Origin: Syntrophorhabdaceae bacterium
GTDB taxonomy: Bacteria > Desulfobacterota > Syntrophorhabdia > Syntrophorhabdales > Syntrophorhabdaceae
Length of the DNA: 64,000 nucleotides
Assembly (NCBI GenBank): GCA_963666485.2
Contig: CAXXUO010000010.1
Location: forward strand, 67,155-131,154
Direction of reading: 5' to 3'
The position numbers are program-made. This document shows positions 39,001 through 45,000 of this stretch, in pieces (the first letter of the stretch is position 1; each line of letters opens with the position of its first letter).

Positions 39001-42000
39001 CCCACGACCCGGAAGTTCGTCATTACGAACAACGGTACAACACCCGTAACGTTCAACTGGTCAAACGCGGGCGCCACCGCCGCTGCAACACTCGGTTTCG
39101 ATGCCGTCAACTCCGTTATCGGGGCCGGCGAGACCGAAATGAGCGACATCGACTCCGGGAGGAAGTCTATTTCTGTCAAGATCGTGACCGGAGGTTCGGC
39201 GACGGGCATCATTGCGAACCGCGCGACGTACTCCTACTCGATAGATGGCGGCCTGACGTGGTCGGCGGCAATGGCGGTCAGCACCGGCGGGGCAGATGCA
39301 ACGGCGGACATAACAATAGATGGTACGAACAACACGCTTTTCCGCAACGGGGCGGCAGTCACACTCACGAATGGGACCTATACGGGTGATGACCTGGCGA
39401 CGGAAATTGAGACCCGGCTGGGGGCAGGGTATTCCGCAACCTATAATCCTGAAACGAGAAAGTTTTCCATTACCAACAGCAGCGGGAGTGTCGCAATATT
39501 CAACTGGTCCAACGCCGGTGCCACCGCGGCAGGCGTTCTCGGTTTCGATAATGTCGACTCTGTCGTCAGCAGCGGGAATTCCGACGTGAGCGATTATGAC
39601 GCCGGCATGTTCATCGATGGCGCGGGGATCGCGAATACTGTGAATAACCGCATAAAGCTGGCATTTGGAACGACGAACACCCCGCTTGTCGCAAACGATG
39701 CATTCCAGGTAAAAGACCTCAGCGTTTTCGAACTGCTCAAGAATTTCAAGGACGCTTTCGACAGCGGGAACACGACATGGGTCTCAAAAAACATCACACA
39801 TATCGATTGCGCCCGCAGCCTGAACTCAAAGAATAATTCCGTGGTCGCTTTTGAAGGTGCGCAGGCCGAGAAACTCATCGATAACAACAAGGCCCGGGCA
39901 AACCAGATCGAAGACGAAAAAACGAACCTGCTCAACGCCGACACCGCAACACTCGGGACCGAGTTCAACGTTCTCCTCAATACGTACCAGACATTGCTTT
40001 CCGCATTTGCCAAGATGCGGTCGATAAGCATACTGAACTATCTCAACTAAAACAATAAACAGCAGGAACAAGGAGTGAGGAGCGAGTGACGCGGAATCTG
40101 TCGTTCGAACGAACCCTTTGAAATACTACCAGAATATCGTCATCCCGGTGCTTGACACCGGGATCCAAGGTTTTGCCGCTCCATTCTGCCATCCACTTTG
40201 CCTGTTGCAAAAGACTTTGTCATAGTGGTCCGAAATAACAAAGCAAAGACTGAAGACGCTGGATACCGGTGTCAAGCACCGGGATGACGAGGGGCGGCAT
40301 GGTCTTTACGGTCTTTATTAAAGGTATAAATTGGATTATGATATACACACTATTCCAAACAGGAGTGCCGTGATGAATGTGCTTGATGTGCCGGTGGTCA
40401 AATATTCCGACATAGGTCCCCATTCAGTTGTTGAACAGGTGGCGGTGGAAGAGCCCCTGGAGATATACGTCGACAACATGCCTTTCTACATGACCATGCG
40501 CCTGCCGGGGGAAGAGGTTTCGCTGGCGCTGGGGTTGTGTTTTACGGACGGCCTTATCGCATCGATGGACGATGTCTCGGGAGCCAATTACTGCAGCGAC
40601 ATTTCAACGAACAAAATAAATGTCTACCTGAGTGAGGCGCGCAAGAAAAGGCCGATCCCGGTGAAGGACAGGCAGTTCACCAGCTATTCGAGCTGCGGCC
40701 TGTGCGGCTCGGACATGATACGCGATCTTACCGCCTCCATAGAAAAGATAGAGAAGACAATAACGGTACCGTTCGCCGACCTGTTCCCGATGCAGGATGT
40801 CATGGTCGAGAACCAGGCAGCCCGCCGGTCCACCGGCGCCACGCACGCTGCGTCGATATTTGACGGGCAGGGCAATTTCCTGTCCTTTTCCGAAGACGTC
40901 GGCAGGCATAACGGCCTCGACAAGGCCATCGGGAAACTCCTTTTCGACGGCAGGCTTCGCCAGGCGAAGATCGTGCACCTGAGCTCCCGGCTGAGTTACG
41001 AAATGGTCATGAAGGCCGCCCGCATGCGCGCCGAGATACTCACCGGCGTGTCAGCTGCGACATCGCTTGCCATCCAGGTCGCTGACGCCCTCGGCATAAC
41101 CCTCATCGGCTCCCTGCGTGAACCGCGGGGGAACGTGTTTACGCATGCGGAAAGGATAGGGTAACGGCGTACGGCGTACGGCGAACGGCGCACTCTCACC
41201 CCCTCCGTCATCCCGGTGCTTGACACCGGGATCCATGCCTTTGTTTTTCTTTCTTTGTAAAAAATTCTTTATCACAGCCATTTTTCGAAACAAATTCTAG
41301 GGCAGGCATTTCCGCTTGCCGTCCGCCGTCCGCCGTCCGCCGTTCTTTACCTTCCCCTTAAGTTCCTTTCACAATCGTCGATAACTATTTCATGAACATA
41401 GAGACCGTGCTCACCAGGGAGGTGAAAACAATTTCGGGAATGGGCACACCATTCGCAGCACCCCGGCGAGATCGCCGGGAGAAAAAATCCTAGAAAAGGA
41501 GATCAACCATGTCAGACATTTCATTAACCAAAGGTATGCGGTCAAACCTTCTGGCCCTCCAGAGCACAGTGAACTTGATGGACAGAACACAGGGAAGGTT
41601 GGCGACAGGCAAGAAAGTCAATTCAGCTCTCGACAATCCGACAAACTATTTTACGGCCCTCAACCATACGTCGCGTGCAAACGACCTTCTGGGCTTCAAG
41701 GACGGGATCTCGGAAGCTATCCAGACAATCAAAGCTGCCGACAATGCAATTACAGGGATCACAACTCTTATCAATTCCGCGAAAGCTGTTGCCGAGGCGG
41801 CCAAAGGCGCACTGACCTCGGGAACCGGGTCCACGAGCCAGACCCTCACAATTAATACCATCACCGGTATAACCGCTGGTACCACCATCAACATCGGCGG
41901 GACGACATTCACCGCGATGGCGGGCACTGCGACAGCGGCTACCAACTTCTCGATCGACTCAGCTACCACGTCGGGTATCGCTGTAGCTCTCGCATCCGCG

Positions 42001-45000
42001 ATCAATGCCACAACGGAAACCAGGAGCATGACAGCCGCAGTGAGCGGCAGCCAGATCACGGTAACAGCAGCCGCCAATACGATGATCGCCGCCGATATCG
42101 AGTTCGCCCCCGCGATGAGTCTTGCCTACTCCGAATCCGCGATATCGGCATCCACCGATCTGAGTTCCAAGGTTACCCAGTACAGCAACCTCATGACACA
42201 GCTCGACAACCTGAAGACGGATGCGTTCTATAAGGGTAAAAACCTCCTCGGAGGAGCTGCGGGCGGAACGAACGATATGGCGGTCCGCTTCGGCAATAGC
42301 CATAGCCTTACGGTGGCCAGTTTTGATGGGTCCAGGTCCGGGCTCGCCATTTCGGCAACGCTGACGACGACGAGCGAGGCGACCCTGCAGACGGTCATAG
42401 ATTCATTGGATACAGCCATATCGACACTGCAGACGCAGTCTTCAAACCTTTCCAGCAACCTGAGCATTATTAATGCCAGGGATGAGTGGATCTCCGGGAT
42501 CGCATCTGTCCTGCAGACAGGCGCCGATAACCTGACGCTTGCCGATACCAACGAGGAGGGTGCGAACATGCTGATGCTCCAAACGCGCCAGTCCTTGAGC
42601 ACCTCGGCATTGAGCCTGTCAGCACAGGCAGCACAGTCGGTCCTGAGGCTGTTCCAGTAGTAACGGATCGAAAACAAACCGGGGGAGGGATACATCCCTC
42701 CCCCACCCTATAAGGGGGTGATGTCATGCCCATCGACAAAATAAACAGTATGGATGCCGTGTTAAATGCAAACCACGGCCAGGCGCAGCACAAAGTGCAA
42801 AATAAGGCCATAGAGGACAGCGTAGACATAGGCGAAATGTCATCGCATAAAAATGACCCGACGAAAATAAGCTACCCCCCGTTCCTTCCGGTTGGCGACA
42901 CGCAAGGCATTTACAGGAAATGAGGGAACTATGGCCCTGAAAATAAAACTGAAACCTCACGAAAGGTTGATAATTGGCGGTGCAGTTGTAACGAACGGGG
43001 ATGCAAAATGCGATCTCATTATCGAGAACGAAGTCCCCGTTTTACGTGACAAGGATATACTCCGGGAAAAAGATGCGGATAGCCCGGCCAAGAGAGTCTA
43101 TTTTGTTATTCAGCTTATGTATATCGATGACAAGGACATTGTGGAGAAACACAATATATACTGGGCCCTTGTAAAAGACTTGGTTGAAGCTGCCCCAAGT
43201 ACCGCAGGATTATTGTCAGAGATCAGCAGCCTTATTATCGAGGGAAAGCATTATACGGCCCTTAAGCTGGCAAAAAAACTTATAGATTTTGAAGGGGAGG
43301 CTATACGTAATGCGCGCAGGGATTAATGCCTACAATGAGACCATGAAATCTACCCTGTCGGGAAGGGACCTTGAGGCATCGATTCTTTCTAAGGCCGCCC
43401 GTCTTCTCAAAGAGTGCCAGGATAAATGGGACGAAGAAGGCCATTTTACCCGGCTCGATGAAGCTCTCGTATTTAACCAGAGGATCTGGACAATTTTTCA
43501 GGATGAACTGATAAGGCAGGACAATCCCCTTCCGGAACAGTTACGGGGCAATATCCTGAGCCTGAGTGTCTTTATCGATAAGCGGATCGTTGAGATAATG
43601 AGGGATCCTTCGCCTGATAAACTTGACATAATAATAAATATAAATCAGAACATAGCTTCGGGCCTGCGCGGCTCGCCACCCTGATTTCCCCATCATACAG
43701 CCTGGCCTTCCCTGCACTCATTCAATAAGCTTACCGTATCGGGGTCCCTGTTATTCCAGGTGATCACGCTTTCCAAAAGAGCTATCGATTGTTCCGTTTT
43801 CCCGGCAAGTTTTAATTTTTTTGCCAGGGAATGAAAGGCAGGATCGTAATTATAGCCTTTTTCTTTCATCGACTTCATGAGGGAGATCCCATCCTGTGCC
43901 TGTCCGGTGATGCAATACGCGGCTATAAGTGCGGCCTGGGCCGGTGGATAGTTATCGACCTTTGCAAGTAAATTCTTGAGACGGTCCACCGCCTCGTATT
44001 CGTCACCGGCACACAACGAAGCGGCCGCATATGTTAATACTGTTTCTTTCGATACCGGGTCGATCTCGTATGCTTTTTTCGCAGCGCTGAACGCATTTTC
44101 AAATTGTCCCATCTCAAGGTAAATGCTGGCCATGTTAAAATGAGGAAGGGCAAGGTCCGGTTTAATTCTTGAATAGGCGCACCAATGGTCTATCGCCTCA
44201 TCATGCCTTCCCAATTCTTCGGCCTGTACTGCCAATTCCCGGAGGGCCATCGGTGTGTTTCCTGCCAGCTCCAATTTCTTTTTCCCCAATTCATAATAAC
44301 TGTTTCCCTTTGCCTTACCTTTTTCAGACGGGAGCTTTCCATAATGATGAATGGGTATAGTGCATTTTTTGATTTCTATCCCTGCCTGCATGATCGAGGG
44401 TTCCAGGATCTCGTGAACGGGATTAGAAAAACAGATCCTTGGATCACGGGTAAATAGTCTCACTTTATTGCTGGGGAACCAGCCGGTCCCTTGTTCTTCC
44501 TCTGCGTATTCACGCACGGTATTGGGGACCCAGCCGTCAGTCGCGGGTTCTATAATGTAATTTCGCGTAATAATGTCATAGGCGACAGGCTGCGAACTGT
44601 TTTTCCGTATGAGTTGTTTCAGGCTGTCGTGATCACGCGGCGACAGGACCTCGTCGGCATCGTGAACAAGGACCCATTCTCCCTGTGCTTTTTCGAGCGA
44701 GACATTCCTGGCCTCCGAAAAGTTCTCTGTCCACGGATAGTCGTAAACCCGGGCACCAAAAATACGGCAAATATCCCTTGTCCTGTCGGTTGAGCCTGTA
44801 TCGACAACAATAATCTCGTCTGCGACGGGCTTGATGCTTTCCAGGCATTTCAGTATAAATTTTTCTTCATTCTTGACTATCATACAGATCGACAGTGTTC
44901 CGGCCGTGCCTGCCCGGTCATCGATTATGCGCGCGCCAATACGATCCCTTACGGAGAGAGCGGCTTGAAGCAGTTCGTCATCGATGCCGAAATCAAGTAT

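Follow-up and report, generated by a model that had tools for sequence, protein, structure and literature searches.

A flagellin-FlbT-FlaF module in place of the native CsrA-FliW-FliS module points to a chimeric flagellum with a remodelled FliD in Syntrophorhabdaceae

The flagellar locus described here has its closest described counterparts in the FlbT/FljJ/FlaF system of Caulobacter crescentus, in the CsrA-FliW-flagellin switch with FliS, FliD and FliT, known from Bacillus and Campylobacter and native to the order Syntrophorhabdales, and in the fla2 and fla3 clusters of Rhodobacterales. The accessible part of one report gives the target of FlbT as unresolved in 2015 (PMC4347634), and the available excerpts of two others credit Caulobacter with a FliD analogue, FlaY (PMC13277936; 10.1101/2024.09.25.614892). 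FliT binds the C-terminus of FliD, according to the accessible text of PMC8306008. Among 60 of the 71 columns of Table S1 of PMC13277936, Syntrophorhabdus aromaticivorans is listed with FliC, FlbT, FlaF, FliD, FliT, FliA and FlgM, and without FliS, FlaG, FlaY and DUF1217.

We analyzed a window of 64,000 nucleotides from a Syntrophorhabdaceae genome (contig CAXXUO010000010.1), whose flagellar features are collected in Table 1. Sequence comparisons argue, with a probability of about 0.7, for a working chimeric flagellum that combines a native base with a foreign flagellin-supply module and a remodelled FliD, here called FliD*.

Table 1. Features of the flagellar locus, in window coordinates.
Feature	Position	Strand	Evidence or remark
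flgK, interrupted in the window by a surplus base at 37269 (assembly error)	36838..38236	+	Read contigs, congeners
flgL, 605 aa, native to the order, travels with the module	38233..40050	+	Against ~295 aa in the majority of the order's FliD-type genomes
Sigma28-type promoter of flagellin, the order's own TAAG variant	41359..41384	+	Pattern comparison across leaders
Two tandem AGA(A/U)-loop hairpins, of which the second covers the ribosome-binding site; candidate operator for FlbT	41461..41500	+	Leader comparison, covariation
Flagellin, single, FlbT/FlaF type, 383 aa	41509..42660	+	Best NCBIfam models rhizobial PRK12688 and PRK14708, both below cut-off
orf65, conserved 65-aa ORF	42726..42923	+	Variable N-terminus, conserved C-terminal YPPF(L/F)P.GDTQ motif
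flbT, translational regulator of flagellin	42931..43326	+	PF07378, 142.7 bits, above Pfam cut-off
flaF, flagellin export chaperone	43310..43684	+	PF07309, 120 bits, above cut-off; PRK12794 above cut-off
TPR / GT2 glycosyltransferase / methyltransferase protein, 3719 aa	43693..54852	-	Domain matches
Sigma28-type promoter of fliD*	54922..54946	+	20/26 orthologues, against 0.16 expected from shuffles
fliD*, FliD derivative, 530 aa if counted from the likely start (the longest ORF opens at 54905)	54980..56572	+	FliD homology over the C-terminal ~215 aa, none in the N-terminal half
FliT-like ORF, orthologue by position of the gene that follows fliS at native loci	56553..56882	+	PF05400, E 0.021, below cut-off

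As an earlier note on this DNA had stated, flagellin, flbT and flaF stand in a row, and the flagellin is single: apart from FlgL it is the only match to Flagellin_N in this 99.1% complete genome, in which the same search found no second flagellin of the FljJ-like full-paralogue kind. FliS, FliW and CsrA, likewise reported missing, were found neither by genome searches nor by order-specific HMMs, and the GGA site of the native CsrA-FliW-FliS module is lacking at the flagellin ribosome site. A single order-specific HMM match to csrA (E 3e-4) proved to be a 578-codon frame and not csrA. The comparison of 18 native loci with FlbT-type loci supports an exchange in place of the CsrA/FliW/FliS module for the FlbT/FlaF module; in this Syntrophorhabdus-like genome, flagellin, a 65-aa ORF, flbT and flaF replace csrA-fliW-fliC-flaG and fliS at the native flagellin locus. 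Synteny, the RpoB tree and an AU test together support a change from the native FliD type to the FlbT type. The large TPR-glycosyltransferase protein downstream, similar genes to which flank most of the compared loci, is likely to act in flagellin glycosylation. The span from flagellin to flaF also contains a fourth conserved ORF, orf65, which the earlier note had left uninterpreted.

Judged from leader comparisons, the flagellin leader retains the native promoter, and its tandem hairpins occupy the place of the CsrA site in FliD-type leaders. The TAAG promoter variant occurs in 17/23 FlbT-type and 18/18 FliD-type leaders of the order and in 2/41 other non-alphaproteobacterial (hereafter non-alpha) FlbT-type leaders, and the genome encodes both FliA (above cut-off) and FlgM; a sigma54-type motif was seen in 13/29 alphaproteobacterial versus 0/64 non-alpha FlbT-type leaders. 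Two or more hairpins are present in 23/23 FlbT-type leaders of the order, 1/18 native, 29/41 other non-alpha, 6/29 alphaproteobacterial and 0/20 canonical ones, the corresponding figures for a CsrA-type site at the ribosome site being 0/23, 18/18, 0/41, 0/29 and 15/20. Covariation, in pair counts that take in related sequences, shows two-sided changes in 8 of 11 pairs, a score reached by 0/500 shuffles, and Rfam gave no match on the leader. The ribosome-site AGAA element alone is not specific, since 10 of its 11 genome-wide matches have no evident relation. We regard the tandem hairpins as a candidate FlbT operator, and this leader element, in that putative role, is new here: in the literature found, neither the element nor an FlbT module outside Alphaproteobacteria is described, although a description of the FlbT target may be contained in papers behind subscription (Anderson and Gober 2000, Ardissone 2020, Kint and Viollier 2023). 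The comparison maps the graft point to within the flagellin leader, and the hairpins offer a direct test of which RNA FlbT recognises.

Across 96 genomes of the order, an FlbT match was obtained in 34, FliD_C above cut-off in 33 and FliS in 34. Neither FliS nor FliD_C above cut-off occurs in any of the 33 genomes with full or frameshifted FlbT, the sole overlap between types being a genome (G038) with an FlbT/flaF piece on a 1.7-kb contig; among 201 Desulfobacterota, 13 have FlbT, 103 have FliD_C and none has both. The mutual exclusion of the two filament modules claimed earlier for the order holds on this larger set, and the count of congeners with FlbT, given as 13/19, becomes 16/19. The filament end, consisting of subunit, chaperone and translational control, would be a module that can be exchanged and that exists in two versions, each excluding the other.

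The earlier note had also held that fliD is absent and the filament cap-less, which we could not uphold. Although FliD_C does not match above its curated cut-off at fliD*, this gene is, on profile and fold comparisons, an intact but diverged FliD derivative under purifying selection with a new N-terminal half. HHalign aligns it with FliD at 99.2% (E 9e-20) over 213 columns, within residues 329-544 only; order-specific HMMs agree, and its best match in FliD genomes is fliD. A Foldseek search with the FliD* model returned flagellar cap or cap-filament complexes as the first 11 matches listed, at E values of only 0.011 or weaker, and the N-terminal half is poorly modelled (pLDDT 53). Among 26 members, FliD_C matches seven at E up to 0.1 (best 3e-7) and FliD_N none, and the N-terminal region and middle domains of FliD were not seen. 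Over the last 130 codons dN/dS is 0.15-0.29 in 9/9 pairs, compared with 0.06-0.39 in the four native pairs that could be measured; the N-terminal half is less constrained (0.23-0.57). FliD* sequences form one clade (97) with long branches; in one genome (G071), which gave no FlbT match, FliD* lies beside a native flagellin and a piece of fliD. An absence of fliD judged by a Pfam cut-off can hence be wrong.

The strongest rival, somewhat less probable but with a substantial share, is a cap-independent filament in which FliD* would be a remnant kept for another role, such as FliT titration, a checkpoint on the order of export or a function as secreted surface protein. It would account for the replaced N-terminal half, for lengths varying between 271 and 712 aa, and for conservation of the C-terminal, FliT-binding region only. 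It also draws on carriers outside the order, where non-alpha FlbT genomes have neither FliD_C (0/9) nor FliD* (0/8), and on a genome of the order (G095, 84% complete) that has the module and lacks FliD*, the FliT-like gene and orf65 at the locus; this type of flagellin therefore apparently can do without FliD. Against it, the conserved part, at about 213 columns, far exceeds a chaperone-binding tail, FliD* is intact in 31 of the 33 FlbT genomes of the order, and the gene stands 5' of a weakly matched FliT-like gene and behind a late promoter of its own; Caulobacter itself has FlaY. No FlaY was recognised among the large ORFs of the 14 alphaproteobacterial loci listed, which are mostly TPR-glycosyltransferase-like by mutual similarity, and DUF1217 gave no match in our genome in a search in which no control matched. 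The preferred reading, a remodelled FliD retained by selection, would make FliD* a direct test of how a filament that lacks a normal FliD acquires its cap.

In other non-alpha modules the position of orf65 is occupied by an unannotated degenerate flagellin, here called X, which lies 5' of flbT in most of them (638 clusters). X is derived from flagellin, as indicated by HHalign (98.5%, E 4e-15) and by fold comparison of its model, in which flagellin ranks top at Z 11.6 with scores that tie with designed helical bundles; Foldseek gave no match at E < 0.001. Homology of orf65 to a truncated X (profile score 9%) or to FlaG (0.2%) was unsupported. By HMM, X or orf65 is missing from 7/30 loci of the order, one of them with a weak X match, and from 8/39 other loci. 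The presence of X in most non-alpha modules, where it is a candidate FljJ-like co-repressor, is new here. By analogy with Caulobacter FljJ, and at a little under even odds, orf65 (X elsewhere) would be a co-factor that is exported and, once removed, no longer allows FlbT to repress; if so, orf65 would be a minimal FlbT partner. Unlikely, by comparison, is that X is no regulator but a cap substitute or junction subunit of FliD-less non-alpha filaments, the old FliD having re-adapted as cap where X shrank to orf65 in Syntrophorhabdaceae. Lineages with full X do lack FliD and FliD* while the orf65 lineage retains FliD*, X combines a variable N-terminus with a bundle resembling flagellin D1, and DUF1217 adjoins flbT instead in some alphaproteobacterial loci. 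However, two genomes (G262 and G218) carry orf65-like genes without FliD*, another (G062) carries both an X-like ORF and FliD*, and X tracks flbT rather than flaF or flgL, remaining beside flbT where flaF relocates.

The flagellin is nested within one alphaproteobacterial subgroup (the label is ours), different from that with short 274-aa flagellins. Its assignment to a Caulobacter/Bradyrhizobium type stands as far as the alphaproteobacterial FlaF-linked clade goes, but the Caulobacter best matches reflect what has been curated or solved (PDB matches at E 3e-15 and weaker). In trees from quick searches, with long stems and an outgroup taken from a single phylum, the non-alpha flagellins group in one clade with short branches (98) within an alpha-containing clade (100); besides Syntrophorhabdales it holds Geobacteraceae, Desulfobacteraceae, Nitrospirota, Ignavibacteriota/Bacteroidota and Verrucomicrobiota. 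An all-alpha flagellin clade is rejected (AU test, p 0.0013), which supports the ultimately alphaproteobacterial origin proposed earlier. The direct donor probably came from outside Alphaproteobacteria, because the flagellin sits inside a single non-alpha clade common to several phyla, its closest relatives belonging to other Desulfobacterota, Nitrospirota and Ignavibacteriota/Bacteroidota. The swap claimed in the earlier note thus survives as an exchange in place, but neither as an import straight from Alphaproteobacteria nor as a single event: one clade for all flagellins of the order is rejected (AU test, p 3e-41), and this test, the RpoB tree and the FlbT matches point to at least three switches in one family (f1) plus one genome of another (f4).

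It is quite unlikely that the module is instead ancient among non-alpha bacteria and that Alphaproteobacteria received it from them or share it with them, the alpha type being a sampling label. FlbT/FlaF do occur in at least four non-alpha phyla, a sigma28-type promoter precedes 38/41 non-alpha copies, and the FlbT tree alone, in which non-alpha rows are not on one side of a branch, sets them between two alphaproteobacterial groups; the nested flagellin clade and the rejected all-alpha clade speak against it, as does the sparseness of FlbT in Desulfobacterota (13/201 vs 32/81 Alphaproteobacteria). On the preferred alphaproteobacterial origin, a portable module comprising flagellin together with an operator RNA of its own, FlbT, FlaF and one small accessory gene would have left one subgroup once and spread through non-alpha anaerobe and subsurface lineages. 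On several occasions within Syntrophorhabdales it would have displaced csrA-fliW-fliC-flaG and fliS where they stood, the long FlgL moving along inside the order. FlgL holds two copies of an insert common to the long FliD proteins of one genus (g24).

Decay of the locus, or an assembly artefact, in an organism that makes no flagellum is very improbable: in the window flgK and motB (60572-61274) carry frameshifts and the Syntrophorhabdus type species is described as non-motile, but both genes are intact in congeners, the extra flgK base is missing from the covering contigs of two runs of one sample, single read-derived contigs run from flagellin to fliD*, and dN/dS of flagellin, flbT and flaF is 0.01-0.39 in seven pairs. 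On the contigs that lack the extra base, decay or phase variation was rejected as the source of the flgK frameshift. Export, motor and chemotaxis genes are present on one contig (C8).

From these parts, the promoter, the hairpins and the signs of selection, all read from sequence, we infer how the chimeric flagellum might work. Basal body, hook, FlgK, sigma28/FlgM control and the flagellin promoter would be native; completion of the hook would let FlgM be exported and free sigma28. FlbT may then bind the two hairpins and block the ribosome site, taking over the job of CsrA, and FlaF may stand in for FliS as export chaperone. FliD*, made from its late promoter, would be held by the FliT-like chaperone via its conserved C-terminus; its most likely place, at about even odds, is still the filament tip, and otherwise it would be a substrate of export or of a FliT-linked checkpoint. 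Doubtful as a whole is the wider proposal of a self-contained cassette spread across phyla, in which an exported partner not described before (X, in Syntrophorhabdaceae reduced to a 65-aa FlgM-like microprotein) would couple translation from the FlbT-read tandem-hairpin operator to export, the host FliD would be rebuilt with a new N-terminal half to cap the foreign flagellin, and other hosts would polymerise the same flagellin without FliD or a known substitute.

With the Caulobacter crescentus system, as far as the accessible text describes it (PMC7591256, citing Ardissone 2020; PMC4347634), the locus shares FlbT and FlaF beside flagellin, the lack of FliS, CsrA and FliW, an adjacent TPR-glycosyltransferase resembling FlmG, and, at the place for a required co-repressor, a degenerate flagellin or small ORF. 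It differs in having one flagellin, of another alphaproteobacterial subgroup, in sigma28/FlgM rather than sigma54/CtrA control, in keeping a FliD derivative and a FliT-like gene, and in lacking a FljJ-like full flagellin, for which orf65 and X are candidates. The CsrA-FliW switch has in common with it the locus, the promoter, the leader layout of hairpin plus ribosome-site element, the FliD C-terminus and the FliT-like gene, whereas here csrA, fliW, flaG and fliS are gone, AGA(A/U)-loop hairpins replace the GGA site, the N-terminal half of FliD is replaced and FlgL is doubled. In Rhodobacterales, per the available part of PMC11974857, flagellar genes also moved between lineages, with fliC-flaF-flbT travelling as a unit; there whole clusters moved within one class, whereas here only the filament-supply module was grafted into a native cluster, across phyla. 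The accessible part of PMC13277936 has the Syntrophorhabdus aromaticivorans genes as a table entry only, and contains no discussion of the swap, of the altered FliD, of X/orf65 or of the leader; by accession order, the FliD listed there appears to be the orthologue of fliD*.

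The flagellar locus runs flgF-G-A-H-I-J-M-N-K-L, an inserted fdhD, flagellin, orf65 (a 65-aa ORF), flbT and flaF, followed 3' of flaF by a convergent gene for a 3719-aa protein, a 530-aa ORF (fliD*), a FliT-like ORF, a small ORF, response regulators, PilZ, motA and motB. The genome is 99.1% complete, with export, switch, hook, FliA and chemotaxis genes on contig C8 (31 proteins scanned, 26 named), and the closest named relatives of its FlbT, at 72-84% identity, belong to Syntrophorhabdus and delta-proteobacterial MAGs.

Features of the flagellin-supply region, in window positions
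Feature	Position	Strand	Remark
flagellin	41509-42660		
orf65	42726-42923		65-aa ORF
flbT	42931-43326		
flaF	43310-43684		
3719-aa protein	43693-54852	-	TPR, GT2, FkbM-type and other methyltransferase domains; strong size variation across relatives
fliD*	54980-56572		530-aa ORF
68-aa ORF	56938-57144		3' of the FliT-like gene; conserved in native and FlbT loci alike; without Pfam match

An extra base at 37269 shifts the frame of flgK; read-derived contigs from four runs of one sample were checked, and the two runs covering the position both lack it, so that we regard the frameshift as an assembly error. Those splitting motB (60572-61274) and a hemA-like gene (about 63156-63928) are likely of the same kind, by analogy. 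The fdhD gene (40331-41164), an insertion that separates flgL from flagellin in this and two further loci, is flanked by a palindromic multi-copy repeat (40138-40290 and 41205-41240) at which contig depth spikes and sub-threshold Rfam matches are probably hairpin matches.

Native, FliD-type loci of the order Syntrophorhabdales read flgK-flgL (about 295 aa)-csrA-fliW-(GT)-fliC-flaG-fliD-fliS-fliT, GT being a glycosyltransferase gene, whereas FlbT loci read flgK-flgL (500-720 aa)-fla-orf65-flbT-flaF-(GT)-fliD*-fliT. The comparison shows replacement in place, and we put the probability of the swap proposed in the earlier note at about 0.9. The mutual exclusion claimed there also holds: among 96 genomes of the order, FlbT is matched in 34, FliD_C above cut-off in 33, FliS in 34 and FlgI in 77, and neither FliS nor FliD_C above cut-off occurs in the 33 whose FlbT is full or frameshifted. 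Genome G038 is of native type, the end of an FlbT gene and flaF sitting on a separate 1.7-kb contig, through either misbinning or a transfer in progress. Across 201 Desulfobacterota, the 13 genomes with FlbT (including the chosen centre and one member of the order) and the 103 with FliD_C do not overlap. Genome G071 has a native-type flagellin with a fliD piece and, separately, FliD* with the end of flaG and a FliT-like gene; FlbT and FliS profile searches of it gave no match. The congener G021 carries two flagellins of FlbT type, both on short contigs and one of them 539 aa long; that no FlbT accompanies them probably reflects a gap in the assembly.

The position of fliD is not vacant, and the statement that this gene is absent was wrong: the ORF there encodes a FliD derivative with a new N-terminal half, seen in 31/33 FlbT genomes (all but G061 and G095) and in 16 of 19 congeners, the same 16 as FlbT. 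A profile comparison of 26 FliD* orthologues with 13 native FliD proteins gave 99.2% (E 9e-20) over residues 329-544, this ORF is the only match of the native FliD HMM in the window genome (E 1e-5), and its best match in FliD genomes is, weakly, fliD. The first 11 Foldseek matches listed are cap or cap-filament complexes, none under E 0.001. Values of dN/dS are 0.15-0.29 over the last 130 codons in 9/9 pairs and 0.23-0.57 in the N-terminal part, and a sigma28-type promoter lies upstream of 20 of the 26 orthologues. As far as Table S1 of PMC13277936 goes, S. aromaticivorans combines FliD, FliT, FlbT and FlaF without FliS. With a FliD derivative kept in place, a cap-less filament is unproven. 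Against a cap role for FliD* count its N-terminal half, unrelated to FliD, its combination with a native flagellin in G071, and the non-alphaproteobacterial FlbT carriers outside the order, where FliD* was found in 0/8 (control G047 positive) and FliD_C in 0/9 genomes.

The alphaproteobacterial source that had been proposed is quite likely correct as the ultimate origin of the module, but the transfer was indirect and repeated. A quick-search tree of 104 flagellins over 269 columns was rooted with 17 rows of FliD-type Desulfobacterota, a long FlgL-like row among them. In it, the 58 non-alphaproteobacterial FlbT-type rows all fall in one clade (98) within a clade (100) that includes 12 alphaproteobacterial rows, the remaining 17 falling outside. 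One of those 12 comes from a locus that shares an identical FlbT with a Bradyrhizobium MAG. AU tests on 74 of the 104 rows (LG+G4; long branches, fragments and near-copies dropped) rejected a single clade for all flagellins of the order (p 3e-41), for all alphaproteobacterial rows (p 0.0013) and for the order's FlbT-type flagellins (p 6e-6). The FlbT tree (102 rows, 126 columns), of lower resolution, places the non-alphaproteobacterial rows between two alphaproteobacterial groups. In an RpoB tree of 50 genomes, 18 FlbT genomes fall into three clades (genera g1+g11, g10 and g13) among FliD genomes, a single clade being rejected (p 1.5e-9); G095, from family f4 and outside that sampling, adds another case, and the FlgI tree has four changes between module types. 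We read this as one exit from Alphaproteobacteria, then spread across other lineages, with repeated replacement within the order. In FlgL, the FlbT genomes come out as a single clade (90) nested in that of the order (100), so this gene is native but travelled with the module. FlgL of the window (38233-40050) holds an insert in two copies, at about residues 212-309 and 311-526. It shares 47-56% identity with inserts that genus g24 has in its long FliD proteins (770-907 aa), which makes it an outer domain that moves from one axial protein to another.

The window promoter (41359-41384) is of the TAAG variant typical of the order, carried by 17/23 FlbT-type leaders of the order, 18/18 native and 2/41 other non-alphaproteobacterial ones; an upstream GGAGG(U/C)G element occurs in 21/23, 17/18 and 6/41, respectively. 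The final 50 bases differ between the types, those of FlbT-type leaders forming two AGA(A/U)-loop hairpins, the second over the ribosome site, which would place the graft point probably inside the leader. At least two hairpins are found in 23/23 FlbT-type, 1/18 native, 29/41 other non-alphaproteobacterial, 6/29 alphaproteobacterial and 0/20 canonical Desulfobacterota leaders (shuffles predict under one multi-hairpin leader per group), and a GGA site at the ribosome site, which we take to be CsrA-type from the consensus, in 0/23, 18/18, 0/41, 0/29 and 15/20. The predicted fold of the window leader has z -3.6, and 22 chosen leaders show two-sided changes in 8/11 pairs, a count inflated by relatedness, slid controls scoring lower. 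For the target of FlbT, which is reported to bind flagellin 5' UTRs through a mechanism left unresolved (PMC4347634), these hairpins stand out as the best candidate. Nine Ignavibacteriota/Bacteroidota loci have two near-identical flagellins with flaF in between, and a complete AGAA hairpin pair precedes the flbT-proximal copy.

Between flagellin and flbT, orf65 or a longer ORF, X (186-286 aa), is present in 23/30 loci of the order, 31/39 other non-alphaproteobacterial and 0/34 alphaproteobacterial loci. X, which falls into 638 clusters at 50% identity and gave nothing over cut-off in a Pfam scan of three proteins, is by sequence a degenerate flagellin: profile comparison with flagellin gave 98.5% (E 4e-15), its Atlas neighbour carries Flagellin_N (0.91), and the top structural match of its model (pLDDT 64) is a flagellin, at Z 11.6 and rmsd 3.3 with 144 aligned, although designed bundles score equally well. 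A PP motif is shared by 144/149 X representatives and orf65, homology of the two not being established by their comparison; the last 22 codons of orf65 have dN/dS of 0-0.30 in 5/6 measurable pairs and 0.57 in one. X remains beside flbT in loci where flaF has moved; being tied to flbT and not flaF, it would more readily share the role of Caulobacter FljJ than act, as a rival reading has it, as a cap substitute. FljJ, according to PMC7591256, is a divergent flagellin that FlbT requires as co-repressor and whose export relieves repression. The leader hairpins and the X/orf65 gene before flbT are the two new, testable parts of the module.
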